A stretch of DNA of 61,002 nt. Origin: a virus. Every line of letters begins with the position of its first letter. Position 1 is the first letter of the stretch. The position numbers were made by a program, and so were the translations under genes. Shown piece after piece: positions 25,585-61,002 of this stretch. The stretch lies in the IMG/VR virus record IMGVR_UViG_3300028841_000403; one strand, 5' to 3'. Below the pieces are notes generated by a model, which saw only the letters and a program-made list of their open reading frames with translations, was not told the origin of the DNA and ran no database searches.

Positions 25585-26478
25585 TCAGGAGCCTTGGGCC
25601 AGGTAAAGCTCTGCCATTTGGCGTAAGGCTCCCGTCCGGGTGAGGTTCCCCGTCTTGTCCTGCTCCAGCGCGCGCTCGATGGCGCGGTTGAGGATCATGG
25701 CGGAGTGCGCGTCCACCGTCCGGGTGCCGAAGACGGAGGAGAGGGGGGCCTGCTTCTTCGTCCCCTTCCCGGCCTGCCCGTCCTGCTCGGCGTAGAGCTG
25801 CACCAGGTCGGGGAGGCTCGCGCCGAAGACATCCAGCATGATCCGTAGGGCCGTGGCGCTGTTCTTCACCTGGCCGGCCACGCCTGCCTCGCCCAGGGCG
25901 TCCATGAACTCGTCGTAGTCCTTGAACCGGGCGGCGAGCACCTCCCCCTTGGAGGCGGCCTCCACCTCGGCGAAGACGCGCTTGATGTCCTGGGCCTCGT
26001 CCGGCAGGAAGGCCAGGGTGATGTTCGTCCACTCCAGGGCGGCGGACGGCTTCCCCTCCGCGGTGATCTCCGCCAGCAGGCCCAGGGTCTTGTCGTCCAG
26101 GCCGCAGGCCTTCTTCAGGTCCAGGTCCGGGATGGATTCGTAGAGGTCCTTGAGGATGGCGAGGTCGTCCTCCCCCGCGATCGCGTTGTGGGAAAGCTGG
26201 ATGGCCACCTGCTCCCCGTGGGAGAGGGCGTCCCGCGTGACCACGAAGGTGGCGCCCGGCAGGCCGGCGGCCTTGCCCGCCTTGCAGCGGTGGTTCCCCG
26301 AGAGGACCTTCCACTTTCCCGTGGCGGGGTTCCACATGGCGAAGGGGCAGGAGCTGAGGCAGCCGTCCCGGCGGATGTTCTCCACCAGCTGCTGGAACTG
26401 CTCATGCCGCATGAAGCGGGCGTTGTGGTCCAGGAGCTCCAGCTCCTCCCAGGGCAGAAAGAGAGTCTCAACCTTCAT
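25585..26478 (-). CDS. ParB-like nuclease (ParB/Srx N-terminal domain) protein
   Basis: 297 aa. ...LELLDHNARFMRHEQFQQLVENIRRDG...WKVLSGNHRCKA... are ParBc-type motifs. Confidence 0.7.
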   Translation of the reverse strand: MKVETLFLPWEELELLDHNARFMRHEQFQQLVENIRRDGCLSSCPFAMWNPATGKWKVLSGNHRCKAGKAAGLPGATFVVTRDALSHGEQVAIQLSHNAIAGEDDLAILKDLYESIPDLDLKKACGLDDKTLGLLAEITAEGKPSAALEWTNITLAFLPDEAQDIKRVFAEVEAASKGEVLAARFKDYDEFMDALGEAGVAGQVKNSATALRIMLDVFGASLPDLVQLYAEQDGQAGKGTKKQAPLSSVFGTRTVDAHSAMILNRAIERALEQDKTGNLTRTGALRQMAELYLAQGS

Positions 26479-27832
26479 TCTTCAGCGCCTCCCAACGCTT
26501 CAGCACCTCGTCCAGGGAGGCCTCGCCGATGGGGCCCCCGTAGTTCAGGGCGAACTTGAAGCCCACGGCCTGGTCCTCCGGCGAGGCGTCCTTGCGCCCC
26601 AGGAGCCGGAAGACATTGCGGTACTTCATGGACTGGGGCCGCTGGCTGAACGCGGTCGTGACCATGGAGTGGATGCGGCGCTTCGTGACCCGCTCGATGA
26701 GCAGCCGTGCCTCCCGCGAGGTGGCCGCCATGACCACCAGCTTGGCGGCGCGGCGGTGGCCCGCCAGCACGCTGAAGTCCGACATGAGGTAGACCGAGGG
26801 GGGCTCGACCCCCGCCGGCGTGCCCTTCATGGAGGTGCTGATGGCGAAGACGCCCAGCAGCGCGCCGTTGAAGAGCACCGCGTAGGCCGCCGTCACGGAG
26901 CCGGGGCGGATCCGCTCGTTGAGATACATGGAGCGCAGGCCGTTGAACTCCCCGGCGGAGAGGGCCTGAATCGCAAGTCGCCCCCCCCCCTCATTTAGCT
27001 GCTCGGGCTTCACGCGGGGGATCCGCGGGGCGGTCACATTCTGGTGGGGGACCACCACCTGCTTGCGGTCCGTGCCGCCGGCGTAGATGTGGAAGTCGGC
27101 GCCGCGCGCCGTGTTCTGAACCCGGCCCCGGAGGCGGGCGGGGGCGTCCTCACCCGCCAGGGGCCCCTGGGTCACAACGGCCCAGGCTTGCCTGCCCTCC
27201 AGGTTGCGGAGGAGGGAGGCGAGGGAGGGAGCGTCCAGCGGCTCCGGGGAGGGGCGGCCGCGCCAGTCGAACAGGGCGTCCAGGTGCTTCCAGAAGGTGC
27301 CCCCCAGGTCCATGCCCTGGATCCATACGAAGCCGCCCTCCTGGTCCAGCATCCAGCGGGACTGGAAGACGAGCAGGTCTTCCGCGTGGAAGGCCTCGAG
27401 GCGGAGCGTCAGCTTGGCCAGCTTTTCCAGCACCTTCTCGTGGAGGGCCGGGAACTGGGTCTGGTAGGCGCCGGCGAGGCGCGCGTAGAAGCTGTTGCCG
27501 TCCCGCTTGCACCAGGCCTCTGCCATGTCCCCGAGGATCCGGATGGTGGCCACCAGGCCCTCCGGCGTCTCCATGTAGGGCTGGAGCCACGCCAGGCTGT
27601 CCTGGTGCTCGGCGCTGAGGCTGAGGTCCAGCCGCTCGCCGGCGAGGTAGGAACCCAGCGCAGCGCTCAGCAGGCTGGAGTCCTGCGCGAGGTGCGCCAT
27701 CGGCAGGTCCACCAGGGACCTCTGGAGCGCGAACTCCTGCGCGCATCCGTGGTAGAGACGCTTTGCGCCCCATCCCTGGATGATCGGCTTGAGCTGCGAG
27801 ATGACCTCGCGGGGGACGGTGGCGAGGAACAT
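26468..27832 (-). CDS. Large hypothetical protein (454 aa), first gene of a late operon. It contains an in-frame G10 tract.
   Basis: A continuous ORF that overlaps the ParB-like gene by 11 nt. No family was recognised with confidence. The G10 tract encodes ...NEGGGRLAIQ.... Confidence 0.6.
   Translation of the reverse strand: MFLATVPREVISQLKPIIQGWGAKRLYHGCAQEFALQRSLVDLPMAHLAQDSSLLSAALGSYLAGERLDLSLSAEHQDSLAWLQPYMETPEGLVATIRILGDMAEAWCKRDGNSFYARLAGAYQTQFPALHEKVLEKLAKLTLRLEAFHAEDLLVFQSRWMLDQEGGFVWIQGMDLGGTFWKHLDALFDWRGRPSPEPLDAPSLASLLRNLEGRQAWAVVTQGPLAGEDAPARLRGRVQNTARGADFHIYAGGTDRKQVVVPHQNVTAPRIPRVKPEQLNEGGGRLAIQALSAGEFNGLRSMYLNERIRPGSVTAAYAVLFNGALLGVFAISTSMKGTPAGVEPPSVYLMSDFSVLAGHRRAAKLVVMAATSREARLLIERVTKRRIHSMVTTAFSQRPQSMKYRNVFRLLGRKDASPEDQAVGFKFALNYGGPIGEASLDEVLKRWEALKNEG
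26981..26990 (-). repeat. Homopolymer tract: C10 on the plus strand, G10 in the coding strand
   Basis: The plus strand reads tcgcaagtcg cccccccccc tcattt. The tract lies inside the 454-aa ORF and is in frame as assembled. Confidence 0.95.
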
Positions 27833-27908
27833 GGCCGAGTGGAGCGGGCGGCAGGTTTCGAGTCTGCGTTTTCGCGCGGGGAGCGCGATGTCTTGCCCCT
27901 AGACGACG

Positions 27909-27957
27909 CCCGCCAGGGTGACCTCCAGCCATCAGCGTGCTGGAGGACCCTGGCGGG
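27909..27957 (-). other. Strong stem-loop in the leader of the 27832 operon
   Basis: cccgccagggt(ga)cctccagc - 9-nt loop - gctggagg accctggcggg. That gives 11+8 bp of pairing, directly adjacent to late motif copy 3. Confidence 0.7.
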
Positions 27958-36260: not shown

Positions 36261-36583
36261 CGAACCTCCGCCAGCGGAAGCGGCTTCATCCTGATCCCAT
36301 CGCCCACGATAAAGAAGCGGTGGGCGTCACCAAGGGCGACGGCGGCCTTGTTCAACTCCTCCACGAGGCCTTCCATGAACTCCGGCGTGTTGCATCGCTT
36401 TGATTCGGCGGCGTAGGACGCGAGGTCTGTCAAGGCCTTCTCGATGTCGTCCATGCGCCCGATGCGGTGGAGTGGATCATCCTCGTTCACGCATCTCCAG
36501 CCGCTCTCCTTCACCCCTTGAATGGATGGCCACCAGTTCATCAGCTCGTCACAGGTCCGGCAGCGCTGGACATCACTCATCAC
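36257..36583 (-). CDS. Hypothetical protein
   Basis: 108 aa; coupled ORF. Confidence 0.4.
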   Translation of the reverse strand: MMSDVQRCRTCDELMNWWPSIQGVKESGWRCVNEDDPLHRIGRMDDIEKALTDLASYAAESKRCNTPEFMEGLVEELNKAAVALGDAHRFFIVGDGIRMKPLPLAEVR

Positions 36584-36734
36584 GGCTACCTTCCCTGCGG
36601 TCGAAGTCGCGGCGCTCTTCCACCTGCTTCCGGCAGAAGAGGGCCTTCCCCTCCTTGTCCCTGCCCTGGGAGATTGCGCCGCGCTTCACCTGGTAGCCGG
36701 CCGCGCGCCAGTCGTCGTAGGTCTTCATCTTCAT
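36573..36734 (-). CDS. Small protein with an ArdC-N-like motif
   Basis: 53 aa: MKMKTYDDWRAAGYQVKRGAISQGRDKEGKALF.... Its ATG overlaps the true methyltransferase stop (ATGA at 36731..36734). In the ORF track it is fused to the methylase by the frameshift. Confidence 0.45.
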   Translation of the reverse strand: MKMKTYDDWRAAGYQVKRGAISQGRDKEGKALFCRKQVEERRDFDRREGSRDE

Positions 36735-37877
36735 GCCAGCTCCTTGAAGAGGGGCCCGCCCTGCGGGTCGTACTCGTGGATCCGTGCCCGCGCCATGGAG
36801 GCGTATTCCGGGTTCAGCTCGATCCCCACGAACTCGCGGCCCAGCTTGAGGGCCGCGCATCCGGTGGTCCCCGAGCCACAGAAAGGGTCCAGAACTCGCC
36901 CCCCCCCCAGCACTTCCGGCGAGGATGCAGAGTTCGGCCAGCTTGATGGGCATGGTTGCGAAATGCGCGCCCTTGAAGGGCGTGGTGGCCACGGTCCAGA
37001 CGCTGCGCTTGTTCCGGCCATTGGCGGGCGCGGCCTGGTCAAGGCGAAGGGTGTTGTTGGGCTGGCCAGCGCGGTTCACTTCCCCTGAGCGTTCAGCCTT
37101 CCCACCCTGGGCGCGATGAGGGGCAACGCGGGCGAAGGTGGATTCTGCGAGTGGCTCGCGGATCTCCTCCGCGTCGAAGTAGTAGTCGAAGGCGCGCCAC
37201 CTGGGCATGGTGTTTTCGGGATCGTCCTCGGTGGGATCGGGGAGAGTTTCCGACAGATCCGGGTCCGCGCTCCACTCCATCGTGTCCCTGGCGCGCCAGC
37301 GCGTGGGCTTGCCGGACTTGGAGAGGAGGAAGAGATACTCGTGGCTCTTGGTGCAGCGGTCCCGGACGCTTTCCGGCATCGGGTTCGGCTTGTGCCAGAT
37401 GATGTCCTGGCGAAGCCACCAGCCGGCCGCCTGAAGGGCGAAGGCCACGCGCCAGGGGATGCCCACGAGGTCCTTGTGCTTGAGGTCGCCAGCGGCGCGG
37501 TGTTTCACTCCTCCGGCCGCGGCCCGATCACGCCGGAAGCTGCGCAGGGCATGGGAGCTTCGGAACTGCGCGTGAGGGGCAGTCGAGCCCTCAAGGGCAC
37601 TGGATTCCATGGCGGGCCCGTTCGCACGGGTGCAGTAACTGTCGCCGATGTTGAGCCAGAGCGTGCCGTGGGGCTTCAGGATGCGGCGCACCTCTTCCAG
37701 GACTTCCACTAAGGCCTCGGCGAAGGCCTCAGGCGTCTCCTCCAGCCCCATCTGGCCGTCCACGCCGTAGTCCCGCAGGCCCCAGTAGGGCGGCGAAGTG
37801 ACGCAGCAGTCCACCCACTCACTGGGAAGCGTGCGAAGGGTGGCGAGGGCATCGCCCTGGAGGACCTCCCAGCTCAT
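36731..37877 (-). pseudogene. Beta-class DNA methyltransferase (motif IV SPPY, suggesting N4-C or N6-A) with its frame broken at a G10 tract. It is either phase-variable, an assembly error, or a pseudogene.
   Basis: The N-part (frame of 37877) carries ...CCVTSPPYWGLRDY... and ...AHFATMPIKLAELCILAGS. The C-part (frame of 36731..37042) carries ...RVLDPFCGSGTTGCAALKLGREFVGIELNPEY.... The two frames meet exactly at 36899..36908. Removing one G gives a 381-aa intact enzyme. Confidence 0.8.
36899..36908 (-). repeat. Homopolymer tract: C10 on the plus strand, G10 in the coding strand, at the methyltransferase frame break
   Basis: The plus strand reads agaactcgcc ccccccccag. Confidence 0.95.
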
Positions 37878-38407
37878 GCGCCGCCCCCCCGCAGAATCGA
37901 GCCCAGTAGCCCCTTGCGCCGCAGGTAGTCCATCGCGCTGTTGGGAAGCTCGTCCTTCCCCGTGTCGCGCCGGTAGGCCCAGGCGAGCTTGCGCACGAGC
38001 GCGGCAAGGTCGCGGCGCTCGGCCTCGCGGCTCACCACCGCCGGGTCCATCGGAATGAGCATCTGCTGGTAGATCCAGCGCGCTTCCCAGTTCTCGAGGG
38101 GGCTGTTCGGGTCAGGGTCGTGGATGACCTTTTCCCCGTAGGCCACGAGCGGGTGAAGCTCGCCGTCCGCCTTGCGGGCGAGGACGATGGAGTAGCCAGG
38201 GCATCTCCACTCGCTCAATCCAGCAGGGACCGAGAGGCAAGAGAGGCCGAACTCCCCCAGGACCAGCGCCCAGTGGGCCAACCAGCCCTCGTTCGAGACA
38301 TCCCCTTCCGGAATGCGGATCTCGTCCAGGCCGACCTCCAGGAGAGAGGCGAGGCAGGCCGCGTAGGCAAAGGGCATGCCCTTCTGCTTCTGGAACAAGG
38401 CCTTCAT
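37874..38407 (-). CDS. Hypothetical protein between the two methyltransferases (possible Cys/His peptidase-like fold)
   Basis: 177 aa from the ATG at 38407 (ATGA overlap with the C5-MTase stop). Cys in FAYAACLASLL and His/Asp in HPLVAYGEKVIHDPDP are only a weak hint. Confidence 0.4.
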   Translation of the reverse strand: MKALFQKQKGMPFAYAACLASLLEVGLDEIRIPEGDVSNEGWLAHWALVLGEFGLSCLSVPAGLSEWRCPGYSIVLARKADGELHPLVAYGEKVIHDPDPNSPLENWEARWIYQQMLIPMDPAVVSREAERRDLAALVRKLAWAYRRDTGKDELPNSAMDYLRRKGLLGSILRGGGA

Positions 38408-40368
38408 GCCGCCACCCCGAATTCCGCGCGGCGGTCCTCCACGATGGTCCGCACGAGGGCCTGGACCGTGTGGACGGGGCACATGTTGCCGATCATCTTC
38501 ACCTGGTCGCCCTTCTTGAGTTCGGAGCCATCCGGGCGCCTGAAGCTGAAGGTGTCGGGGAGGCCCATGGCGCGGGCCAGCTCGCGCGGCTGGAGCATGC
38601 GAAGCCCGATGTCAGCCAGCACGAACTCCTGGCCCTGGATCGTCACGGTGACGAGGGCGAAGCGGTCCTTGGTGTCCTGGGTCCGCATCGGATCGTCCAG
38701 CGGGTGCGTGTAGAACTCCGGCCGGTCCCCGGCGCCGTAGCGCTGGAGGAAGGCCGCCACCATGGCGTAGTGCTGGCCGTTCGCCGCCAGGGCCCCGATG
38801 GGCTCCGACATGGGGGATCCGGTGCATTCCCCGTTCAGGCGGGCGATGGAGGCCGCCACCACGGCGTGCCGGGCCTTCGTGGTCGCCGTCGAAAGGGGGG
38901 CGTCAGCGGGCCAGATGCTCCGGCTCGATGCCTGGTCAATGCCGACCAAGTGCGCCGCCCCCAGCTTCTCTTCCAGCAGCGCCGCCACGAGGGCGTGCTT
39001 CTGGCCGCAGGCCACCACCGTGCCCAGGGGCTCCTCGATGTTGAGGGCGCGGGGCGCCTGCCCCTCGCGCTCGCCGTAGCCGGTCTGGACCAGCGTGGCG
39101 GCCACCAGGGAGTTGTGGTCCTTGGAGGTGACGGTCGGCATAGGGGTGTCCACGCCCGCGCCTACCACGCCCGTGTAGTGCTTGGCGATGAAGGCCGCCT
39201 CAACCACGGCATGTCCTCCGCCGGTTGAGACGGTCCGAAGGGGCTCCTCTGCGGAGTAGGCGCAGGTCGCGTTGCTCTTGTGCATGTCCGTCCGGACCAT
39301 GGAAACGGCCACCAGGGCGCTGTCCGCCTTCGTGGTCACGGTTCCGATGGGCTGGTCCGCGCCGCGGGGCTCGCTCTGGCCGGCCCGGCCGCCCACGCCC
39401 ACCAGGCAGGGCGCGGCCAGAGCCTTCTCGCCGCGTTGGGCGCCAGTGACGGTCTTCATGGGTTCGTCCAGGGCCTCCACGCGGCCCCCATGCGTGAGGT
39501 TCACGATGAAGGGCTCGCCCGTGAGGACGAAGCGCTCGATGCCCGCCGCGATGCGCTTGAGCGTCTTCTCCGCCAGGGGCTTCTTGCGGTCGAAGATGCT
39601 GGGGCACGGAAGGGTGAAGTCAATGCACTCCGCCGCGGTGCGCCAGGGTGGCAACGCCGCGTCGAAGAGCCCAGCAGGCTTCTTCGGGTTCCGGTGCGTG
39701 GCCTCGGGCCAGCGGATCGGGATGCCGTCCTTCACCGCCTGCAGGAAGAACCGCCTCCGGATGGTGGGATCGCCGTAGTCGGCGGCGCAGAGGACACGGT
39801 GCTCCACCTCGTAGCCCAGGCCGCGAAGCTCCAGGATGAACGCGGCGAAGAACTCGCCTTTGCGCGCCTTGATCGGCTTCTCGAAGTGGCAGCTTTTCAC
39901 GGGGCAACGCTTGGCACCCGCGGGCCGTCCCTTGCAACCTCCTGAGTGGTCCTTGTGCAGCGGGCCCCAGTCCCGGAACTCGGGCACATTCTCCATCAGC
40001 AGCACCTTCACATCCGCCACCTTGAGGAAGCGATCCACCACCTCCTGGGCGTGGGAGCGCTGCTGGTCGCTGACGGGCTTGCCGCCGCGCGCCGTGGAGA
40101 AGTGGACGCAGCTCGGGCTGGCCCACAGCATGTTGATGGTCTGGCCGGCGAGGCCGAAGTCCGCGGCCGTGACCTCTTCGATGGCCTCGCGGCGGCACTC
40201 GATGCCGGGGAAGTTCTGGCGGGCGGTCTGGATCGCTTCGTCCCAGTGGTTCAGCGCGTAGCCGACCGTGCTTTCGGTCTGGATGCCCAGCTCGGCGAAG
40301 GCCTGGAGCTTGCCCTGCATCTCGCCGCCGGCGCCGCAGAAGAGGGACATGGTGACGGGCTTACGCAT
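38404..40368 (-). CDS. dcm: DNA (cytosine-5)-methyltransferase with eight tandem TRD-like units (candidate multispecific enzyme)
   Basis: 654 aa. Motif I is LFCGAGG, motif IV is SPSCVHFS, motif VI is ENVPEF, motif VIII is TIRRRFF, and motif X is GNMCPV. Residues about 300-575 hold 8 units of (D/E)xPxxT(V)T....(H)A(L/V)V spaced 32-44 aa apart. Confidence 0.85.
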   Translation of the reverse strand: MRKPVTMSLFCGAGGEMQGKLQAFAELGIQTESTVGYALNHWDEAIQTARQNFPGIECRREAIEEVTAADFGLAGQTINMLWASPSCVHFSTARGGKPVSDQQRSHAQEVVDRFLKVADVKVLLMENVPEFRDWGPLHKDHSGGCKGRPAGAKRCPVKSCHFEKPIKARKGEFFAAFILELRGLGYEVEHRVLCAADYGDPTIRRRFFLQAVKDGIPIRWPEATHRNPKKPAGLFDAALPPWRTAAECIDFTLPCPSIFDRKKPLAEKTLKRIAAGIERFVLTGEPFIVNLTHGGRVEALDEPMKTVTGAQRGEKALAAPCLVGVGGRAGQSEPRGADQPIGTVTTKADSALVAVSMVRTDMHKSNATCAYSAEEPLRTVSTGGGHAVVEAAFIAKHYTGVVGAGVDTPMPTVTSKDHNSLVAATLVQTGYGEREGQAPRALNIEEPLGTVVACGQKHALVAALLEEKLGAAHLVGIDQASSRSIWPADAPLSTATTKARHAVVAASIARLNGECTGSPMSEPIGALAANGQHYAMVAAFLQRYGAGDRPEFYTHPLDDPMRTQDTKDRFALVTVTIQGQEFVLADIGLRMLQPRELARAMGLPDTFSFRRPDGSELKKGDQVKMIGNMCPVHTVQALVRTIVEDRRAEFGVAA

Positions 40369-47479: not shown

Positions 47480-48586
47480 TTAAGCGACCGCGCCCGTAGC
47501 GGCGGCCAGCTTCTTTTCCAGGGCGGTCATCCAGCCCTGGACATAGGGATTGGGGGTGAACTTCTTCGTGTGCTTCGCGCGCAGCTTCGCAAGCGCCTCG
47601 GCATCCACGCTTGCGCGCGCTGCCAGCTCGGCGATGACGGCTTCCGTGTCCTCGTCTTCCTTCTCCTTGGGCTCGACGGTGCCGAACTGCCAGCCCTGCC
47701 CCTTCAGCCGCTTCACGCCCAGCTGGTTCACGCGGGCGGTGAGCTTGGCCTTGGCGTTCTTCTCGGCCTCCTCCGCCTTCTTGCGTCTGATGACCGTGAG
47801 GGCGTAGGCCGTGGCCGCGATTTCATCTTCAGGGCCAGCGGCAGCCTCATCCTTGAAGCCCTTGGAGCGCAGGCGCAGTAGCTCGGCCTGAGCTTCGCTG
47901 GAGGTCTTCGCGGTGGCCGCGGGCTCGATGTTCGGGACCACATAGCCGATCCAGAATTCCTTGCCCTTCTCCACCATCAGGTCGAAGAGCTCCTGGTCGA
48001 AGCGGATGGTGTAGGTCCGCTCCTCCTCCAGGATGGCGCTCAGAAGTTGGGTGGGCGTCATGCCCAGGTCCTTCAGCTTCTCGGCGCGGTCCCAGTCCAC
48101 GAAGGCGGCGCGCAGCTTGAAGGTGTGGATGCCAGTGAGGCCCATGTACCACTGGACCTGCACCTGGTAGTCCAGGCGGGCCTGCTCGGAGCCGTCCGGC
48201 CCCCATTCATCCGTCCAGAGGGCGCGGTAGGTGACGCACTTGATTTCCAGGCCCTCCGCCGTGGTGTTCAGCGGGAGGAAGTCGGGGTTGCCGCCCAGGA
48301 AGGGGAACTCGGGATGCCGGACCGCCGTGCCCTTCCGCAGCTCCAGGCCGGTCGCGTTCGCGTGGCGCTGGGCGACGGCGGGCTCCAGGAAGTTGCCCAG
48401 CTCGACATAGAAGGCGAGGTCCTTCTCCGGGGCCAGTCCCTTCTTCTCCAGGTAGACATCCAGGGCATCGCCGTACTTCGAGACGCCCATCAGCTTGGCG
48501 AGGTCCGTCCCGCCCAGGTAGGTCTTCCGCTCTTCCAGCCACGCCTGGCGGGCCGGGTCCACGGGCTTCAGCAGCTCGATGCTCAT
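47480..48586 (-). CDS. YqaJ/lambda-Exo-like recombination exonuclease with a C-terminal extension
   Basis: 368 aa from the ATG at 48586. ...WLEERKTYLGGTDLAKLMGVSKYGDALDVY...NPDFL...GLEIKCV... are PD-(D/E)xK YqaJ motifs. Confidence 0.75.
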   Translation of the reverse strand: MSIELLKPVDPARQAWLEERKTYLGGTDLAKLMGVSKYGDALDVYLEKKGLAPEKDLAFYVELGNFLEPAVAQRHANATGLELRKGTAVRHPEFPFLGGNPDFLPLNTTAEGLEIKCVTYRALWTDEWGPDGSEQARLDYQVQVQWYMGLTGIHTFKLRAAFVDWDRAEKLKDLGMTPTQLLSAILEEERTYTIRFDQELFDLMVEKGKEFWIGYVVPNIEPAATAKTSSEAQAELLRLRSKGFKDEAAAGPEDEIAATAYALTVIRRKKAEEAEKNAKAKLTARVNQLGVKRLKGQGWQFGTVEPKEKEDEDTEAVIAELAARASVDAEALAKLRAKHTKKFTPNPYVQGWMTALEKKLAAATGAVA

Positions 48587-48879
48587 GCCACCGCCTTCCG
48601 CGACCGCTTGCAGGTCGGGCAGCAGAGGTCCTGGACCACCTGGCGCACCGTCGCTCCCGGAGCCGCGCTCTGGAAGGGGATCTCGTGACCGCAGGCCAGG
48701 ACCCAAAAGGCGCCGCCGCCTTGGGCGCGGGGGTGGATGACCAGACCGATCCGGCGCCGGCGTGAATCCGGGCTTGATTTGCTGGGGATAGGTGCGGACA
48801 CTGATTGCGTAGCGCATCCCGTTCCACGGGTATTTCCATGCGCTGCGCAACCTAGAGCCGCGCTCGACACGCGATTCAC
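48583..48879 (-). CDS. First early-left gene: small Cys-containing protein (98 aa, GTG start)
   Basis: The GTG at 48879 has a GGGAGG SD 6 nt upstream, about 70 nt downstream of the predicted leftward promoter. The C-terminus is ...ACGHEIPF...CCPTCKRSRK. Confidence 0.45.
   Translation of the reverse strand: MNRVSSAALGCAAHGNTRGTGCATQSVSAPIPSKSSPDSRRRRIGLVIHPRAQGGGAFWVLACGHEIPFQSAAPGATVRQVVQDLCCPTCKRSRKAVA
48805..48817. promoter_or_regulatory. Operator-like site TTGCGtagCGCAT
   Basis: The same 13-mer occurs at 32858..32870. It lies inside the first early-left ORF. Confidence 0.45.
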
Positions 48880-48956
48880 AGTTGCCTCCCTTTGAGAAAT
48901 CCCTTACAGCCAGGCCACAAGGGGCGGATCGGTCGTCACCCCGAATCCACTCATAC

Positions 48957-48985
48957 AGTATCCGTGCGCCACGCAAGTCTGTCAA
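48957..48985 (-). promoter_or_regulatory. Sigma70-type early leftward promoter (-35 TTGACA, 17-bp spacer, -10 GATACT)
   Basis: The minus strand reads CACTTGACA GACTTGCGTGGCGCACG GATACT. The spacer is occupied by an operator site. Confidence 0.65.
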
Positions 48986-54347: not shown

Positions 54348-55334
54348 TCAGGCCGGGCGGCGCCGCCGCTTCAGGTCCTCTGAAAGCATGGTGCTCACCT
54401 CCGCCGTCACCGCCTTGCGGTTGTCGTCGTAGCGCTCCACCATGTCGAACTTCTGGTGCCGGCTGAACTTCTTCGCCGTCCGCATGTCCCCGTTCGTGGA
54501 CTCGAGCACCTGTGTGATGGCCGTGTGGCGCAGCCCGTGGGGGCGCGTCCTGAAGCCGAGCTTGTGCCCCAGCTCCCTCACGAGGTCGTAGATGGCGCTT
54601 CCCGAAAGGGGCTCCCGCCAATCGTCCGGACTCGCGTTGTCCAGCCGCACGAAGAGCGCGCCTTCCCAGTCCCCGCGGACGGCGATCCAGGACCTCAGCG
54701 CGTCCGCGGTCCCGCGGCCGATGGGAATGGGCTGCGGCTCGCTTCGCCCTTTCCCTTTGATCCACACCTCGCCGCGTCCTTTCCCATCCACATTCACCTG
54801 GCGCGGGAACTGGATCGCGGCCACCTCGCCGCGGCGAAGGCCGAGGTCGTAGAGCAGGTGCAGGATGGCCGTGTCGCGCGCGGCCTTCGATTCATCCTCC
54901 TGGGCCTGCGCCGCCTCCATCATGCTGGCCACGCGATCCGGGCCAGGCCCCGCGGTGTCCTTGAGCGCGATCACCTTGGGAGGCCTCACCTCCACGGTCC
55001 AGCTGCAGAAGCCCAGGATCCTCGCCACGCGCACGAGGCGCCGAAGGCTGGCGATGCGCCGCGCGACCGTCGCCGGCGCCTTCCCATCCTCCTGCTGCGC
55101 CATCCGGAAGCTGGCGATCATCGCGTTGCCGCCCACCGGCCCCGCCGAGATGAGGCTCGCTGCCGCGGCCCTGATGCTCGGGGCTTTCAGGAAGAGGCGG
55201 AAGGCCTCCGCGTCCCTCGTGTAGGCTTCTCGGCTGGCATCCGCGAGCTCCGACATCACCACCTGCCACAGGCGCTCGATGTCCTGGATAGCTGAGGTCG
55301 CGAGCCCACCGTGCGGCTGGGGATCCATGAGCAT
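54348..55334 (-). CDS. Tyrosine recombinase (phage integrase / XerCD-like)
   Basis: 328 aa from the ATG at 55334; the track ORF reaches 55403. ...LLYDLGLRRGEVAAIQ..., ...HGLRHTAITQVLE... and ...VERYDD indicate the R..HxxR..Y catalytic set. Confidence 0.8.
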   Translation of the reverse strand: MLMDPQPHGGLATSAIQDIERLWQVVMSELADASREAYTRDAEAFRLFLKAPSIRAAAASLISAGPVGGNAMIASFRMAQQEDGKAPATVARRIASLRRLVRVARILGFCSWTVEVRPPKVIALKDTAGPGPDRVASMMEAAQAQEDESKAARDTAILHLLYDLGLRRGEVAAIQFPRQVNVDGKGRGEVWIKGKGRSEPQPIPIGRGTADALRSWIAVRGDWEGALFVRLDNASPDDWREPLSGSAIYDLVRELGHKLGFRTRPHGLRHTAITQVLESTNGDMRTAKKFSRHQKFDMVERYDDNRKAVTAEVSTMLSEDLKRRRRPA

Positions 55335-55359
55335 GATTCTAGGCCCTTTTCTCCAGGGC

Positions 55360-55650
55360 TCAACCGGCCGTGTAGAGGGCGCGTTCCAGCTCTTCCCTTG
55401 CAACGGCGGGCAGATTCTCGTGCACGAGGTCCAGGAAGGCCTGCTCCGTGCCTGACTCGTCTCCCAGCTCGATCCCCTGGAAGAGCAGGCCCCACAAGGG
55501 CCGGATGGCGCTCAGAGGGCTCACGCCCATCATTTCGCTGGCCGCAAGGGCAGCCACCACCTGGTGCCGGACCGGCATCTCAGCCCCACAGATCCTCACG
55601 AAGGCCGAGAGTTTCTCGATCTGAGGGGGCTGAAGGGGCGCGGCCAGCAT
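55360..55650 (-). CDS. Hypothetical protein upstream of the recombinase
   Basis: 96 aa; no family recognised. Confidence 0.4.
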   Translation of the reverse strand: MLAAPLQPPQIEKLSAFVRICGAEMPVRHQVVAALAASEMMGVSPLSAIRPLWGLLFQGIELGDESGTEQAFLDLVHENLPAVAREELERALYTAG

Positions 55651-55853: not shown

Positions 55854-56438
55854 TTGGTCCGCGAGTTCGGAATCGAGGCGATTCAGCCTGTCCGGCTTCT
55901 GGCCATGCTTCGCGTCCGCGGAATGACCGTCGAGCATCTCTCCAGGCTCTCCGGGATCTCGGACCGGACCATCAACCGCATCAACCAGGATCCGAGCTAC
56001 TCGCCGCAGGATGGCACATGGGTGAAGCTCGCCCACATCCTGCGCTGCGACAAAGACTGGCTCTCGAAGGGCGAAGGCGCGCCCATGAACACCCCGGATG
56101 GCCGCGTGGCCCTCATCATGGCCGCGAAGGGATGGGATGCGGAAGACCTGCACCAGGCCATCAAGGGAAGCGTTCCGCTCGAGACTATCCGCGAATTCCT
56201 CGACGGCCACCTGCCTGTGGATGAGCAGACCTCCATCCAGGTCAGCCTCTACGCCAGCGTGCTCGACTCCGATGCGCGCTGGATCCTCTACGGCTCCAGC
56301 CCCAATAGCTCCAGCGCCTCGCGTCCATTCAAGGAAACCGTCCGCCTTGCCGAAGCGGTGAAGGAAGCTCTTCCTGGCGGCGTGGACGCGGACAAGATCG
56401 CCCTCAAGATCGTGGACCTCTACTTCCGGAAGAACTGA
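55854..56438 (+). CDS. XRE-family HTH DNA-binding protein (two HTH-like segments)
   Basis: 194 aa from the TTG at 55854 (AAGGGG upstream). ...LRVRGMTVEHLSRLSGISDRTINRINQD... and a second segment ...MAAKGWDAEDLHQAIKGSVPLETIREFLDG.... Confidence 0.6.
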   Translation: MVREFGIEAIQPVRLLAMLRVRGMTVEHLSRLSGISDRTINRINQDPSYSPQDGTWVKLAHILRCDKDWLSKGEGAPMNTPDGRVALIMAAKGWDAEDLHQAIKGSVPLETIREFLDGHLPVDEQTSIQVSLYASVLDSDARWILYGSSPNSSSASRPFKETVRLAEAVKEALPGGVDADKIALKIVDLYFRKN

Positions 56439-56458
56439 CCCCCTCCCAAAGGAGCGCC

Positions 56459-57094
56459 ATGCGCCGCCTCTTCTTCACCCTCATCTTCATCTTCGGCGCG
56501 GCCTTCGCGCCGGCACAGGCCCAGGACATCAGCGCCCTCGCCGCCCAGGGCCCTGGCCAGAACCTCATCAGCGATGCCGCCGGATCGCAGATGGTGTCCG
56601 CTTGGGGCGCGTCCATCGCCCGCCCCGGCAACATCCGCGGCTCCTACCTCTGGTCCGCCGCCACCATGAAGGCCCTGCTCGCCACGCCGGGCGCCGCGGA
56701 GGTCCGCTTCCACCTGGCGCTGAACTCCTCCTGCGACTTCACCATCCATCCCGAGGTGCTGGACGCCAACGGCAACAGCCTCGCCTGGGGGCCCGTGGAT
56801 GTCGCCTCCGGCATCAGCATCACGGCCGCGACGGCGCAGGCCAACTCCGCCAGCTGGGCCGCGACCAAGATGAAGCCCATCAACGCGCCCAACTCCCTCA
56901 CCTATCCCGCCAGCGCCTTCGCGTGGCTCCTCTCGCTGCCTGGCGCCGCGCAGCTCCGCCTCAGCCCCGGCATCAACAACAGCGGCAACCTCACGCTCGT
57001 CGGCCAGGCCCTCGACGCCTCGGGCACGCCCATCACCACCAGCAACGCAATCGCCACCATTGACGGCGGCACCCCCTGCCCTCCGGCCTGCTGA
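56459..57094 (+). CDS. Secreted protein with an internal two-fold repeat
   Basis: 211 aa. The signal peptide is MRRLFFTLIFIFGAAFAPAQAQD. The repeat ...LLATPGAAEVRFHLALNSSCDFTIHPEVLDANGNSL... matches ...LLSLPGAAQLRLSPGINNSGNLTLVGQALDASGTPI.... Confidence 0.6.
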   Translation: MRRLFFTLIFIFGAAFAPAQAQDISALAAQGPGQNLISDAAGSQMVSAWGASIARPGNIRGSYLWSAATMKALLATPGAAEVRFHLALNSSCDFTIHPEVLDANGNSLAWGPVDVASGISITAATAQANSASWAATKMKPINAPNSLTYPASAFAWLLSLPGAAQLRLSPGINNSGNLTLVGQALDASGTPITTSNAIATIDGGTPCPPAC

Positions 57095-57717
57095 TGCTGG
57101 TTCTCAACCTCGCTGCGTATGCAGCGCTCGTCCTCTCGGCGGTAGGCGCCTTCTTGGGCCTCCGCCGGTGGGCGCAGCTGCGGCCGTCTCAGCGCTGGTT
57201 CAGCCTCTACCTGCTCGGCAGCTTCATCATCGGCCTCGCGCTCGCCATCACAGCCTGCCTGCACATCAAGAACTGGCTGCTGATGAACGCCTGGTCCTGC
57301 TGGATCGCCGTCACGCTCGGCCCAGCCATCTCGGAGCGCCTGCTGTCGCGGGACCGCTACATCGCGCGCGCCCTGTTCACCCTCTGGCTCGTGGCCTGGA
57401 TCTCCGCTCGAGTATTCACGGGGTTCAGCTCGTGGGAGGGCTACCTGCACCCCATCCTCTGCGGCCTGCTCCTCGGGGTGGGCATGTCCGCCTTCGACCA
57501 GATCATCAAGGATGACCTCCCCTTCTGGCGGAACGGCCAGGCCATCCTCGTGGTCGCCGCGTCCCTCATGGCCGCCTGCGATGCGGTCACCTGGGCTTCG
57601 ATGAGGCTCTACACCCCCGCCACCAATGCCGGGTTCGTCTCCGTGTGGACTGCGCGAAACCTCGCCATGCTGCCTGTCTCCGCTCTCTACCTCTTGGCCT
57701 TCCAGGTGTCCGAATGA
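57094..57717 (+). CDS. Polytopic inner-membrane protein (about 6 TM segments)
   Basis: 207 aa and hydrophobic throughout. Its ATG overlaps the upstream stop. Confidence 0.55.
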   Translation: MLVLNLAAYAALVLSAVGAFLGLRRWAQLRPSQRWFSLYLLGSFIIGLALAITACLHIKNWLLMNAWSCWIAVTLGPAISERLLSRDRYIARALFTLWLVAWISARVFTGFSSWEGYLHPILCGLLLGVGMSAFDQIIKDDLPFWRNGQAILVVAASLMAACDAVTWASMRLYTPATNAGFVSVWTARNLAMLPVSALYLLAFQVSE

Positions 57718-58046
57718 CTTTCGACCGCATCATCATCTGCATCCTCCTCCTGGTCACCGCCGCGGCAGCCTTCTTCTGGCGCAAGTGGGAGAAGGCCACA
57801 GCCGAGCGGCGCTCCGTCAACCGCACCCTCATGGGCGTCAGCACCGCTACCAGCGCCAAGGTGTTCCATCTCTCCCTCCGCATCGAGCAGGCGGCTGCCC
57901 AGTCCCCCGAGCCCCTCCGCTCAGAGCTCCTGGACATCTCCTCGAACCTCAAGGACCTCCACTGCGTGGCCCAGGAAGGCGTGAAGAAGGGGCTCGAAGC
58001 CTCGTCGGGATCCCATTCCCTTCTGGAGCTGGCCCCGAAGAGCTGA
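57714..58046 (+). CDS. Single-pass membrane protein
   Basis: 110 aa from the ATG at 57714 (ATGA overlap). The TM segment is IIICILLLVTAAAAFFW. Confidence 0.5.
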   Translation: MTFDRIIICILLLVTAAAAFFWRKWEKATAERRSVNRTLMGVSTATSAKVFHLSLRIEQAAAQSPEPLRSELLDISSNLKDLHCVAQEGVKKGLEASSGSHSLLELAPKS

Positions 58047-58067
58047 GGACCGTTCCACGGCATGAAG

Positions 58068-58116: not shown

Positions 58117-59868
58117 CTAGGGCGTCATCATCTTGATGTTGTGGGCCACGAGGCCGCCGGCGACGAAGAGATGCCCCTTGTCCAGGCTCAGGTGGTAGAC
58201 CGTCTCCTCGATGCCCGTGGGCTCGATGCTCAGGACCGGCGTCTCCTCGAGCACGCCGGGCGCCGTTTCCCACAGCGTGGTGAGGCCCACCAGCATGGAT
58301 TCCACCGGTGGATAGTTGGCCTGCCAGTAGCCCTTCGGCGCGTCCTTCAGGAAGATGCGGTGATCTCCGCTGCACAGGATGAAGCCGTGCTCCGTGACGA
58401 CCCGGAAGAGCTTCCGGCCCTCGTACACGAAGACTTCCTGCACCGTCGCGTCCACGCGCCCGAAGGTGGCGTCATCGTAGGCCCGGATCACCTGGCCCAC
58501 CTTCACCGTCTCAGCAGGGATGCTGCTCCCATCCGCCAGACCCACCCAGGTGCCCGCGGGGACACAGCCGGGATCGCTCCCGCCACCGCCGCTCGTCGCC
58601 GACATCGTGATGTTCAGAACCTTCTCGACCACCGTTGCGGTGGGCGTGGCCGAATCCGTCAGGCGCACGCGCACCTTGTAAGGACCGGAGTTCGCCTGGG
58701 TGAAGGTCACGCTGCCCGTCACCTGGTCGCTGCTGGTCCCGCCGATGGCCGCGCCGGGAAGCGTGGTGTCCGCGCCGGCGACGATGGACCAGGTGTAGGG
58801 CGTGATGCCCCCGGAGCCCGTGAGCCCGAACTGGACCGCGAAGGGTCCCGCGCCGCTGAAGGCGAAGCTCTTGTCCGTGGAGGTGATGGTGAGGGGCTCA
58901 ACCGCGTAGGGGTTGAGGGTGATGTTCAGCACCTTCTGCGTGGTGCGAGGCGTGGAAGCCTGGTCCACCGCCTGCACCTTCACCTGCCAGGTGTTCGGCA
59001 CGGTCGGGGTGCCGGTGAAGGTCAGCTTCAGCTGGTTCCCGCTCACGATTTCGGCCTTGGGATCCGTGGTCCCGTCCTGCAGCCCCGCGCCTGTCACGAT
59101 GCTCCAGGTCACGGCGCCCACGGCGCTCAGGGCGCCCAATGGCACGAGCACATAGTCCGGGAAGGTCTGCGTGGCGCTCTCCTGGAAGGTCTGGTCCCCG
59201 GTCGTGATCGTCAGCGCATCCAGCGGCGGCTCACCCAGGTATTTGATGGAGCCGCGGATCGTCCCGGCGGGGGCACCGTCGCGCTGGAAGTAGACATAGG
59301 GGTCCACCCAGCTCGGGTCCACGAAGACCATGCCGTAGAGGTCCTCCGAAGGCTCGCTGTCGGAGGTGTCGAGCTGGTTGTCCAGCAGGATCGGCGCCCC
59401 CCCGTCATGCACCAGGAAGGCCTGGATGCTCGAGTTGATGCTGTTGGCTCCGACGCTGAATCCTTCCACCTTGTGGAAGGCGAGGATCTCGTAGAGCCCC
59501 TGTTTCGCCAGCTTGAAAGTGCTCGCGTCCCGCGGCTGGCAGGCGGTCCCGTACCGGGTGGCCGTGTAGCCGGTGATGGTCTGGAAGTTGCCGCCCCCGG
59601 TGTTCGGCGTGCCGGCGCGGAAGCTCAGGGCCTCGATGGCCTTGGTGTCTAGATAGTCGAGGCGGTGCCCCAGGGAGTCGAAGGTGCTGCGCGCGGCATC
59701 AACCTCGCCTTCCACTTCGTCCAGGCCCGCCTTCAGGTAGGCCGTCCGGTTCGCCAGCTGCTTGGCCTGGAGGTTCGACACGCCAGAAGGGCCGCCCTCC
59801 ACGGGATCCGCGGCCGAAAGCTGGTAGATGCTCGGCTCGAAGGTGGGGGTTTCCGGAAGGTTCGCCAT
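58117..59868 (-). CDS. Tail fibre protein with Ig-like repeats and a C-terminal Hint/intein-like (BIL-type) domain
   Basis: 583 aa, 3' of tail protein I. The N-terminus MANLPETPTFEPSIYQLSAADPVEGGPSGVSNLQAKQLANRTAYLK is fibre-typical. Two ...TWSIV(T/A)GA... Ig-like units follow. The last 149 aa run CVPAGTWVGL...SGDHRIFL...VYHLSLDKGHLFVAGGLVAHN-IKMMTP. Confidence 0.8.
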   Translation of the reverse strand: MANLPETPTFEPSIYQLSAADPVEGGPSGVSNLQAKQLANRTAYLKAGLDEVEGEVDAARSTFDSLGHRLDYLDTKAIEALSFRAGTPNTGGGNFQTITGYTATRYGTACQPRDASTFKLAKQGLYEILAFHKVEGFSVGANSINSSIQAFLVHDGGAPILLDNQLDTSDSEPSEDLYGMVFVDPSWVDPYVYFQRDGAPAGTIRGSIKYLGEPPLDALTITTGDQTFQESATQTFPDYVLVPLGALSAVGAVTWSIVTGAGLQDGTTDPKAEIVSGNQLKLTFTGTPTVPNTWQVKVQAVDQASTPRTTQKVLNITLNPYAVEPLTITSTDKSFAFSGAGPFAVQFGLTGSGGITPYTWSIVAGADTTLPGAAIGGTSSDQVTGSVTFTQANSGPYKVRVRLTDSATPTATVVEKVLNITMSATSGGGGSDPGCVPAGTWVGLADGSSIPAETVKVGQVIRAYDDATFGRVDATVQEVFVYEGRKLFRVVTEHGFILCSGDHRIFLKDAPKGYWQANYPPVESMLVGLTTLWETAPGVLEETPVLSIEPTGIEETVYHLSLDKGHLFVAGGLVAHNIKMMTP

Positions 59869-59878
59869 GTGCCTCTCC

Positions 59879-60706
59879 TCAGCTCGGGTTCAGGGTCCAT
59901 TCGCCGACCAGCTGCCAGTCGGAGGTCTTCTCAAGCGCGGCGGAGCGGGTGATGGTGGCCACCACGGCTCCGCCGGCGTCCAGCAGGGTGAACTTCTGGA
60001 AGGTGCTCCCCGCCTCTTCGCCCTGCGTCAGGCCGAAGGTGGCCAGGTAGGAGCCCCCGCCCAGCGCGGTCAGGCCCAGGATGTCCTTCTGGTAGGTGGT
60101 GGTCCCGCCCAGGTTCTCCATTCGGACCTGCGTCACCAGGCCCAGCTTGGAGGTGTCCACGATCCCGCCGGAGAGGGCCAGGCGCATCTTCAGGCCGGCC
60201 AGGTGCCGGGAGACCGGCTTCCAGGCCTCCACCGAGGCGCGGATGAGGGCCACATCGGCGGCCGCCAGGCCGCGGTCCCCCAGGTCGAACTGCACCCGGA
60301 ACATCGCCCACACATTGCCGCCGCCGTAGGGGTAGCTCCCATCGTATTGGATCGCCCCGTTGTAGAAGTGCTGGCCGTCCAGCCGCTCCTCGAGGACGCC
60401 GTTGGGCCAGCCCACCGCGTCCAGGGCCTGCTTGATGGCCCAGGGCGTGCCGGTCTTCCGGTGGAGGGAGATAGCCCGCTTCAGCAGGTCCCGCTTCTGC
60501 GCGTCCGTGGTGGCCAGGCTCCATCCGCGGACACCCAGCACCCGGAGCTGACTCGCCAGGCTATCCAAGGCTGCCGCCGGCGCGAGGTCCATGTTGTAGA
60601 TGGCCAGCAGCCCCGTGGAGAGGGTTGCCTGCCGGTCTATGAGGGCCTGGAAGGCCTGGCTCCGCTCATCGGCAATACTGGAGGGCAGAAGGCGGGCATC
60701 AGGCAT
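59879..60706 (-). CDS. I: Tail protein I (P2 gpI family)
   Basis: 275 aa. MPDARLLPSSIADERSQAFQAL..., ...KRDLLKRAISLHRKTGTPWAIKQALDAVGW... and ...WKPVSRHLAGL parallel P2 gpI. It overlaps the J stop by 8 nt. Confidence 0.85.
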   Translation of the reverse strand: MPDARLLPSSIADERSQAFQALIDRQATLSTGLLAIYNMDLAPAAALDSLASQLRVLGVRGWSLATTDAQKRDLLKRAISLHRKTGTPWAIKQALDAVGWPNGVLEERLDGQHFYNGAIQYDGSYPYGGGNVWAMFRVQFDLGDRGLAAADVALIRASVEAWKPVSRHLAGLKMRLALSGGIVDTSKLGLVTQVRMENLGGTTTYQKDILGLTALGGGSYLATFGLTQGEEAGSTFQKFTLLDAGGAVVATITRSAALEKTSDWQLVGEWTLNPS

Positions 60707-61002
60707 CCGAGGCCCCCAACATCGTGACCGTCACCCCGGTGCAGTTCGCCCACTCCCCCGGGCCCACGATCTGGAAGGTGGGGCTCACCACCTGCAGGTC
60801 GTAGACGCCAGGAACGGTGAGGGCCGCGATGACCTGAGAGGGCACCAGGTCCTGGCCCAGGAGGCTCTGGCGGCCGCGAACCGTGGACCCATCCGCCAGC
60901 GTCTCCCCGTACAGGAAGGCCTGCGCCCTGGCCTGGATTGTCGTCTGAAGAGCCGTCGCGTCCTGGCCAGTGATGGGCACAACATTGACGACGATGGCGT
61001 AG
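60699..61002 (-). CDS. J: Baseplate assembly protein J, C-terminal part (same gene as 1..971; 60862..61002 duplicates 1..141)
   Basis: The frame is open to the window end. The C-terminus is ...VIAALTVPGVYDLQVVSPTFQIVGPGEWANCTGVTVTMLGASDA, with the stop at 60699. Confidence 0.88.
   Translation of the reverse strand, partial: YAIVVNVVPITGQDATALQTTIQARAQAFLYGETLADGSTVRGRQSLLGQDLVPSQVIAALTVPGVYDLQVVSPTFQIVGPGEWANCTGVTVTMLGASDA
60862..61002. repeat. Terminal direct repeat, copy 2 (identical to 1..141)
   Basis: Direct comparison of the two window ends. Confidence 0.93.

Follow-up and report, generated by a model that had tools for sequence, protein, structure and literature searches.

We report that a tail fibre gene in the virus record IMGVR_UViG_3300028841_000403 of IMG/VR, located at positions 58117..59868 on the minus strand of a 61,002-nucleotide stretch of DNA (the window, by which we mean this whole stretch), encodes a protein whose C-terminus belongs to the Hint (Hedgehog/intein) superfamily. 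The C-terminal module has every sequence feature of a type A bacterial intein-like (BIL) domain, and we put at about 60% the probability that the last 149 residues of the fibre are such a domain, acting a single time and in cis to remove itself from the protein that carries it. The occurrence of this end-module on unrelated phage fibres points to an undescribed route of fibre maturation.

The fibre ends in a Hint module

The fibre open reading frame (ORF) starts with ATG, comprises 583 codons plus a stop and is the last gene of the tail operon. An initial annotation of the region had proposed a Hint fold for the last 149 residues (nt 58120..58566), and both the coordinates and every residue it named were confirmed. 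The module proper covers residues 435-577 (58138..58566, minus strand), i.e. 143 amino acids, and has no endonuclease. Its first residue, Cys435 (nt 58564-58566), stands in the context DPG-CVPAGTWVGL; block B reads CSGDHRIFL, with the motif Ser500-x-Asp-His503 (His503 at nt 58360-58362); the histidine of block F is His566; and the His576-Asn577 pair of block G (nt 58138-58143) lies within VYHLSLDKGHLFVAGGLVAHN. The module is preceded by a Gly-rich linker, SGGGGSDPG (residues 426-434; 58567..58593, minus strand), whose last residue, Gly434, takes position -1 at the predicted cleavage site, and is followed by the six residues IKMMTP (residues 578-583; 58120..58137, minus strand) and the stop codon, with Ile578 at position +1, as first noted, and a lysine at +2.

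Comparison with models of Hint and intein domains, which the initial annotation recommended, gave a divided result: Pfam stayed below threshold on the window protein, as did the NCBIfam models of intein N- and C-termini, but a profile of the fibre-family modules matched solved structures with E-values down to 1e-16. Searched on its own with phmmer against the Protein Data Bank (PDB), the window sequence aligned across the whole domain with BIL and mini-intein chains at E-values of 0.005-0.13. The family profile (A2), an alignment of 14 fibre-family modules, retrieved 29 PDB chains at E<=0.01, with solved Hint chains aligned over positions 5-151. Its matches include the HINT domain of UmbC1 (8W20; 1e-16), the BIL domain of C. 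thermocellum (2LWY; 9e-15), BIL2 of the Tetrahymena protein BUBL (6Y75/6TMM; 2e-11) and the mini-inteins of DnaX, RecA and DnaB (1e-9 to 1e-5). The first of these structures, 8W20, is a Streptomyces umbrella-toxin particle, the HINT domain of which precedes the toxin at the tip of the stalk.

Structure prediction, also suggested at the outset, did yield the Hint fold. The AlphaFold2 (AF2) model of the module, built from the family alignment, has a predicted local distance difference test score (pLDDT) of 87.1 and a predicted template modelling (TM) score of 0.81, and its neighbours found with Foldseek are BIL2, the Ssp and Npu DnaB mini-inteins and 2LWY (E-values 6e-10 to 1e-8, TM-scores 0.75-0.87). 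Foldseek returned 64 PDB matches at E<=1e-3, and the best 50 listed are all inteins, BILs or Hedgehog proteins, Hedgehog 1AT0 standing lower in the list (E-value 9e-6, TM-score 0.73). Motifs, profile and fold agree, and the family profile matches, the confident model and the placement by Foldseek together make the Hint assignment secure. The module is as conserved as the fibre body, with a mean pairwise identity of 42% as compared with 38-50% in the other domains.

Affinity to type A BIL domains

The initial annotation had likened the module to BIL or Hedgehog-type domains, and it is the former comparison that profile, fold and motifs bear out. Type A BIL domains, reportedly the subject of work by Amitai et al. 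in 2003 and Dassa et al. in 2004, resemble the fibre module in having a Hint fold of ~140 amino acids without an endonuclease, in possessing Cys1, the block-B His and the His-Asn end, in lacking Cys, Ser or Thr at position +1, and in residing in a non-conserved extracellular protein rather than at a conserved site of an enzyme; their solved representative, BIL4 of C. thermocellum (2LWY), is matched by the profile at 9e-15 with TM-scores of 0.75/0.84. The fibre module differs from them in that its host protein is a virion tail fibre, in that its C-flank has only six residues (0-31 in its relatives), leaving almost nothing to release or ligate, and in that it belongs to a 'G-CVPAGT ... AHN-(I/L/M)-K' subclade tied to the terminal position. 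Type A BILs retain the C-terminal His-Asn of inteins without a nucleophile at +1; they form the N-terminal thioester and cleave their C-terminus by Asn cyclisation, cleavage products dominating over a low-yield splicing that occurs when the freed amino group attacks the thioester (PMC4031507). With Cys435, His503 in block B, His566, His576-Asn577 and Ile at +1, the fibre module is, as far as its sequence goes, a type A BIL in every respect, and autocatalytic cleavage of the type A kind is predicted for it.

Cys1, the block-B and block-F histidines and the terminal His-Asn would equally be expected of a canonical class 1 intein splicing the fibre to a six-residue C-extein via a branched intermediate, and the fold is closest to mini-inteins as well as to BILs. 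We nevertheless regard this explanation as extremely improbable. Ile578 at +1 offers no side-chain nucleophile in place of the Cys, Ser or Thr of class 1 inteins, and Cys occupies this position in none of 86 relatives of the module; there is no homing endonuclease; the profile has a higher affinity for BIL and PT-HINT chains than for inteins; and the module does not interrupt any conserved site of a conserved protein, its C-flank being six residues long, its N-flank a variable Gly-linker, and one fibre homologue (P0012) ending at the linker. Without a +1 nucleophile and a real C-extein, the module fails as a canonical intein. The earlier statement that splicing is unlikely therefore holds for the canonical route but is too broad in general, as type A BILs do splice at low yield by aminolysis (PMC4031507), so that IKMMTP might be re-ligated onto Gly434.

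The Hedgehog part of the original comparison does not hold. Hedgehog/Hog proteins (1AT0) are alike in having a functional N-terminal part, a Gly|Cys junction (here Gly434|Cys435) and a Hint domain placed last and discarded after thioester formation. However, they lack the terminal His-Asn and Asn cyclisation and possess a sterol-recognition region for cholesterol transfer, whereas the fibre module keeps an invariant His-Asn pair, has only the six-residue tail IKMMTP where an adduct-recognition region would be, with no sterol-recognition extension, and shows a sequence affinity to Hedgehog far below that to BILs. A further class to be considered is PT-HINT (PF07591), to which UmbC1 (8W20), the best PDB match of the family profile, belongs, and which is likewise found at the distal tip of a filamentous extracellular protein. 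The window protein gave no PF07591 match at E<=1; three of the 14 fibre-family modules and 33 of 57 relatives outside the fibre family that also end in the module do match. PT-HINT domains are followed by a toxin domain and an immunity gene, unlike the fibre module: the fibre ORF stops six residues past the Hint domain, the neighbouring genes lie on the other strand, and the module belongs to a structural fibre encoded by a P2-like tail operon.

Conservation of the module in the fibre family and beyond

A full-length search identified 14 relatives of the fibre (P0001-P0014), and 13 of these have the same C-terminal module, preceded in nearly all of the homologues by a poly-Gly linker. The closest one, P0001, is 61% identical to the window protein. 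The exception, P0012 (locus L004, 6001..7710), ends with 'GGGGGGGGGVGGPFLQL' right after the poly-Gly linker. A gene converging on it begins at the stop codon, and past that stop no remnant of Hint was found in any frame. P0012 is a fibre that either functions without Hint or arose by recent recombination, and its end at the linker indicates that the module is separable exactly at the predicted cleavage junction.

To look beyond the fibre family, residues 425-583 were compared in an exhaustive HMMER (phmmer) search with 1.84 billion representative proteins, and 609 relatives were recovered at E<=1e-3, including 68 at E<=1e-10. Position classes were assigned from the best 150 of the 609 after local re-alignment, and 86 proteins carry the module as their last domain (the terminal class). 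The xHN end is present in 85 of these 86; position +1 is Met, Ile, Leu or Val in 53, Lys in 10, Ser or Thr in eight and Cys in none, position +2 is Lys in 47, and the tail measures 0-31 residues (median 8). Modules matched end to end as one stretch number 84 terminal and 126 internal ones. Gly occupies position -1 in 56 of 83 terminal modules, with a poly-Gly run in 43, and the motif C-[VTL]-P-A-G-[TA] is found in 37/84 terminal modules versus 1/126 internal ones. At +1, internal modules most often have Lys (81/125) and rarely Cys, Ser or Thr (16/125), which argues that the whole clade is BIL-like rather than intein-like. When the 57 terminal-class proteins outside the fibre family are aligned, the only invariant columns are Cys1, the block-A Gly, the block-B His, the penultimate His and the terminal Asn, the block-F His being nearly invariant; Cys1, the block-B His and His-Asn are also invariant in the 14 fibre homologues. 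All residues for the reactions at both junctions are present and appear to be under purifying selection, and their invariance across divergent terminal-class proteins and fibre homologues is the sequence evidence that supports such selection.

Proteins with the terminal module form a heterogeneous set among which phage tail proteins are frequent. One of them, P0061, is a lambda gpJ-type central fibre (PHROG 31, 2e-238) encoded in a canonical tail-tip module (tape measure, gpM, gpL, gpK, gpI and J, followed by lysis genes); tail-fibre-like regions occur in P0038, P0040, P0056 and P0060; and single examples have cadherin, Big, dockerin, PQQ or extracellular contractile injection system (eCIS)-core domains. 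Homologues of ~710 amino acids possess a different, longer N-terminal adaptor, and their genes, likewise last in the operon, lie in another contractile-tail cluster. The module accordingly caps fibres of at least three scaffold types, namely the P2 gpH-type, a second adaptor type and the lambda gpJ-type.

This distribution bears on the idea that the module is a functionless passenger, either a decayed mini-intein or BIL or the stump of a 'fibre-HINT-toxin' protein that has lost its toxin, tolerated because it removes itself. HINT is indeed a known releasing peptidase in front of toxin domains, sometimes on stalks of tail-fibre repeats (PMC3482391; compare UmbC1), many close relatives are internal or tandem modules with sequence downstream, and P0012 lacks the module. 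We nonetheless doubt this explanation. A useless last domain could be deleted harmlessly by one stop codon, yet the module is kept intact almost everywhere, with intact catalytic residues in 13/14 fibre homologues and 85/86 terminal-class proteins, so neutral persistence is unlikely, which is an argument for a function. Furthermore, the tails are short (median 8 residues) and share a hydrophobic-Lys start, unlike random toxin stumps, the 'CVPAGT' subclade is specific to the terminal position (37/84 versus 1/126), and no immunity-like gene lies on the fibre strand.

The module was hard to find by other means: a word-indexed homology search with the C-terminal module alone gave no match, and one with the module alignment gave four fragments only. 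A tblastn search with three module sequences among 50,697 phage records matched only true inteins (in NTPase and ribonucleotide reductase genes) and hypothetical proteins of a Ruminococcus phage at 27-31% identity. The latter belong to phage NatCom_3870 (L003; PV036417.1, 57540-68260), with three module matches, two of them located in successive hypothetical-protein genes (564 and 265 amino acids), each followed by a small ORF of ~170 amino acids; the layout recalls phage-borne polymorphic toxin/immunity cassettes.

Some arrangements of the internal relatives also deserve mention. Many of these proteins contain tandem Hint modules separated by 4-8 residues or by poly-Gly, e.g. '...AHNKPCLLAGT' or '...THNIKPPPCFVKGT' (P0085, P0090, P0116, P0124, P0145, P0146, P0069, P0076, P0167, P0037, P0042, P0066 and locus L014), with up to 5-7 matched stretches per protein in P0042 and P0066. 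A conserved viral protein of ~441 amino acids, seen in loci L008, L009, L011, L012, L013 and L016, consists of a 120-residue N-domain, poly-Gly, a Hint module (CFPAGT...VHN), 'GGGGKGGGG' and a C-terminal part of ~190 residues with a hydrophobic stretch and 'GYGRLIIGS'; it looks like a lambda tail-assembly or tip protein. In locus L017, a gpJ-like host-specificity protein carries a poly-Gly-flanked Hint close to its N-terminal end. The Hints of the ~441-residue ORFs and of the gpJ-like ORF have Gly or Ala at +1 and look like self-cleaving linkers within tail-tip polyproteins.

Predicted reaction and its possible purpose

If the module behaves as a type A BIL, Cys435, assisted by His503 of block B, would undergo an N-to-S acyl shift turning the Gly434-Cys435 peptide bond into a thioester, and Asn577, with His576 and His566, would cyclise and cut the Asn577-Ile578 bond. 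If the thioester is then hydrolysed, the 61.5-kDa full-length chain would yield a 45.3-kDa fibre with the Gly linker at its end; if it is attacked instead by the amino group that IKMMTP has gained, as in other type A BILs, a 46.0-kDa fibre plus tail would result. Either way, a 15.5-kDa Hint domain would be discarded and remain outside the mature fibre.

Our best guess at the purpose, made by analogy, is that the module could be a built-in, single-use aid to maturation or assembly: until the fibre is assembled, its distal end would be held soluble or inactive. We favour such a role because of the analogy with the self-cleaving S74 domains and the separate Tfa chaperones; phage fibres are known to mature with the help of separate chaperones (Tfa, gp38/gp57A) or of self-cleaving chaperone domains of the S74 type. 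The peptidase S74 intramolecular chaperone domains of endosialidases and other tail spikes, reportedly treated by Schwarzer et al. in 2007, are functional analogues in that a C-terminal domain of a fibre precursor removes itself (as in endosialidases and the T5 L-shaped fibre pb1), and the fibre module could be seen as taking the place of the separate fibre chaperone that is missing from this locus. The two nevertheless differ in fold and chemistry, S74 being a Ser-Lys dyad that needs trimerisation as opposed to the Cys thioester and Asn cyclisation of the fibre module; the window protein has no S74 match in Pfam or PHROGs, and its C-terminal fold is that of Hint. By this analogy a chaperone role for the module is putative.

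Several observations weigh against self-removal as we picture it. Cleavage is predicted from motifs alone, and on the window protein by itself Pfam Intein_splicing reaches 20.6-25.7 bits against a cut-off of 35.8, with only blocks F and G covered. The purpose is the weakest link: the modelled fibre body is a string of Ig/cadherin-type, monomeric-looking beads that would not obviously need a C-terminal folding chaperone, and the simple analogy with an S74-like trimerisation chaperone is weakened by it. The Hint-less P0012 suggests that a fibre of this family can exist without the module. Finally, if cleavage at the N-terminal junction were all that mattered, there would be no reason for the terminal Asn and a hydrophobic-Lys tail to be so strictly conserved; their conservation goes beyond what simple removal accounts for and hints at a role for the C-terminal reaction.

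It is this conservation of Asn577 and the tail that leaves room for a different idea, namely that the module serves for ligation: the Gly434 thioester would be attacked by a nucleophile from outside, for instance an amine (Lys or N-terminal) belonging to another virion protein or fibre chain, or a host-surface group, and the fibre tip would become covalently attached, in a manner analogous to Hedgehog cholesterol transfer or to the BIL-driven conjugation proposed for the ubiquitin-like domains of Tetrahymena BUBL. BIL2 of BUBL (6Y75, 6TMM) is indeed both the best single-sequence PDB match and the best Foldseek match (6e-10) of the module, and it follows a flexible Gly-ended segment; it is, however, eukaryotic, flanks ubiquitin-like domains (as a proposed conjugation driver) and is only 17% identical to the fibre module. 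The putative acyl donor of the fibre is similarly a flexible, ubiquitin-tail-like Gly run ending in Gly, a Lys is conserved by the C-terminal junction (+2 in 47/86 terminal modules, +1 in 81/125 internal ones), the fibre body resembles adhesin-type Ig strings, and the chemistries of both junctions, unneeded for simple removal, are strictly retained. We still give ligation a small chance, since no acceptor candidate is identifiable and no partner gene lies downstream, nothing resembling a sterol- or substrate-recognition extension follows the Hint domain in the tails of 0-31 residues, the published type A BILs mostly just cleave (PMC4031507), and the Hint-less P0012 exists. In its full form, in which the Hint domain would be a self-contained thioester generator that arms the distal Gly tail for covalent attachment to a virion component, a neighbouring fibre chain or the host surface, with the Lys-containing tail taking part, the proposal seems to us unlikely. 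In a weaker variant, Asn cyclisation would set free the short, variable C-terminal peptide, which would then have a function in its own right.

The fibre scaffold and its genomic setting

The initial annotation described the ~430 residues upstream of the module as a normal fibre with Ig-like repeats, which is accurate for the N-terminus and for the Ig-like domains but not for the overall build. Residues 1-55 (59704..59868, minus strand) form a P2 gpH-type baseplate-attachment segment: matches to the PHROG tail-fibre families 3100 and 4209 (1e-15 to 1e-13) are limited to this part, and the same N-terminus recurs, as revealed by tblastn, in fibres of BcepMu, phiE255 and Klebsiella and Pseudomonas phages. 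The gene immediately upstream encodes Tail_P2_I (gpI; 59879..60706, Pfam 6e-21), preceded by the C-terminus of baseplate protein J (60699..60980), and the locus of P0001 (L002), a related prophage, is syntenic, its P2-like tail module comprising the genes for tape measure, gpU, gpX, gp25/W, J, I and the fibre. Judged by the matched N-terminal segment, the position after J and gpI and the same synteny in L002, the fibre is of the P2 gpH type.

The whole fibre was modelled by AF2 with a pLDDT of 77.6. A long helix (residues 31-72; 59653..59778, minus strand; modelled as 31-62 and 66-72) is probably a coiled-coil neck, in a region of low confidence (pLDDT 36-59). It is followed by a beta-sandwich domain (residues 79-212; 59233..59634, minus strand; pLDDT about 72-94) and two Ig/cadherin-like domains (residues 220-424; 58597..59211, minus strand), the latter recognized by AF2, Foldseek and weak Pfam Ig-type matches, and residues 425-432 before the module have a pLDDT <50. 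Foldseek likens the fibre body to strings of protocadherin and cadherin EC domains and to the adhesin SraP, and the homologue P0001 bears a He_PIG annotation. On these models the body would be a string of cadherin/Ig-like beta-sandwiches, unlike the classical trimeric beta-helical fibre. The beta-sandwich domain is the most variable part of the family (mean pairwise identity 37.6%), and in P0013 and P0014 its identity falls to 13-18%, the Ig domains remaining at 43-53%. It may therefore be residues 79-212, a candidate specificity domain, that confer host specificity, rather than the distal end.

This variability also bears on the possibility that the Hint domain is not cleaved at all and serves as a distal structural or receptor-binding knob, its motifs being conserved by ancestry or constraints of the fold only. 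The module is the most distal folded domain, which is the usual site of receptor binding, it is compact and confidently folded in the AF2 model, and its cleavage is a prediction. Even so, we find a retained knob improbable: five to six catalytic positions are invariant in 57-86 proteins at 20-50% identity while surface loops vary, the opposite of the receptor-binding pattern; the same module recurs on fibres from phages that differ widely in host and scaffold; variability within the family peaks in residues 79-212 and not in Hint; and the tether is a disordered Gly linker.

The genes downstream are consistent with a fibre that ends where its ORF does. There is no same-strand gene after the fibre in the window, converging genes starting 71 nt past the stop codon. 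A cassette of four genes on the plus strand (55854..58046) lies between the fibre and the integrase and, judging from its ORFs and Pfam matches to helix-turn-helix (HTH) domains, encodes an XRE-type HTH protein (194 amino acids), a signal-peptide protein (211 amino acids, ending in GGTPCPPAC), a multi-pass membrane protein (207 amino acids) and a small membrane-anchored protein; the cassette probably serves lysogenic conversion or exclusion. In L002, too, the fibre is followed by four converging genes and then an integrase; the three cassette genes nearest the fibre share 41-63% identity with their L002 counterparts, and the fourth position in L002 is also an HTH protein. The conservation of these converging genes indicates that the fibre ORF truly ends at its stop codon with no Tfa-type gene after it, and indeed no Tfa-type (gpG/Tfa) chaperone gene was found downstream of the fibre in the window, L002, L005 or L006, nor was a chaperone gene found downstream of the ~710-residue homologues. 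As a candidate for further coding sequence past the stop (readthrough, C-extein or chaperone), the minus-strand ORF 57587..58063 was rejected, being in another frame and antisense to a conserved plus-strand gene.

Novelty and significance

The initial annotation had regarded a fibre of this architecture as uncharacterised, and we likewise found no isolate phage that has one and no description of one in open-access papers and bioRxiv or among the 50,697 phage records. The tblastn search with the three module sequences revealed no fibre with a close module among these records. In the literature so covered, where absence is not proof, Hint domains were encountered only as classical inteins in terminase, helicase and ribonucleotide reductase genes or in polymorphic toxins, and no tail fibre ending in Hint was met with. 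The single window protein had no match in genomes, and an alignment scan of 185,579 species-representative genomes found a close copy in only two, both metagenome-assembled genomes of Acidobacteria. BFVD contains proteins of uncultured phages that bear the automatic label 'Hint domain containing protein' and can be aligned across Ig and Hint stretches, so the architecture exists unremarked in databases. What was already known are Hint and BIL domains with their chemistry and HINT as a toxin-releasing peptidase; what is new is a terminal, tail-fibre-associated subclade of type A BIL.

Should self-removal be true, the Hint/BIL end-module would represent a third, chemically different route of fibre maturation besides separate chaperones and S74 domains. 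The module is apparently portable, as it occurs on the P2-type side fibre, on a second adaptor type, on a lambda J-type central fibre and, as poly-Gly-flanked copies, inside tail-tip proteins. Since 2003 it has, to our knowledge, been unclear what BIL domains do biologically, and a terminal BIL that nothing follows allows the purpose of the reaction itself to be considered in isolation. For protein ligation tools, a thioester-forming domain that is naturally terminal and preceded by poly-Gly is of interest, and the module is relevant to the engineering of receptor-binding proteins. Were the ligation proposal to hold, it would mean enzyme-free protein ligation within phage assembly or adsorption.

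The window genome

The window is a nearly complete temperate phage genome, circularly permuted or cut inside the baseplate module, with a G+C content of about 67%. On its minus strand it encodes an integrase (54348..55403), a YqaJ-type recombinase (47480..48985), a terminase (23480..25183), a portal protein (21864..23471), a head protease (13634..14842), a tape measure protein (5801..8362) and a tail protein (4061..5065). The tail module runs off the left end of the window and resumes at the right end with the C-terminus of J, gpI and the fibre; by comparison with L002, the sequence missing between these ends seems to amount to ~1.2 kb (a 119-residue gene and the N-terminus of J). A second fibre-like protein of 465 amino acids (1537..2934, minus strand), matching the tail fibre/minor tail PHROGs 7049, 26941 and 23595, has no Hint end, and the phage may therefore carry two kinds of fibre or spike. 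Two methyltransferases (38404..40368 and 36573..37877) and a DAM-like/GNAT two-domain protein (26468..27832; Pfam 2.5e-42 and 1.6e-37) are encoded on the same strand, making a heavy DNA-modification load for one phage, and a tRNA-Gly(CCC) gene (27840..27913) lies directly upstream of the DAM-like/GNAT gene (region 26468..27913, minus strand).

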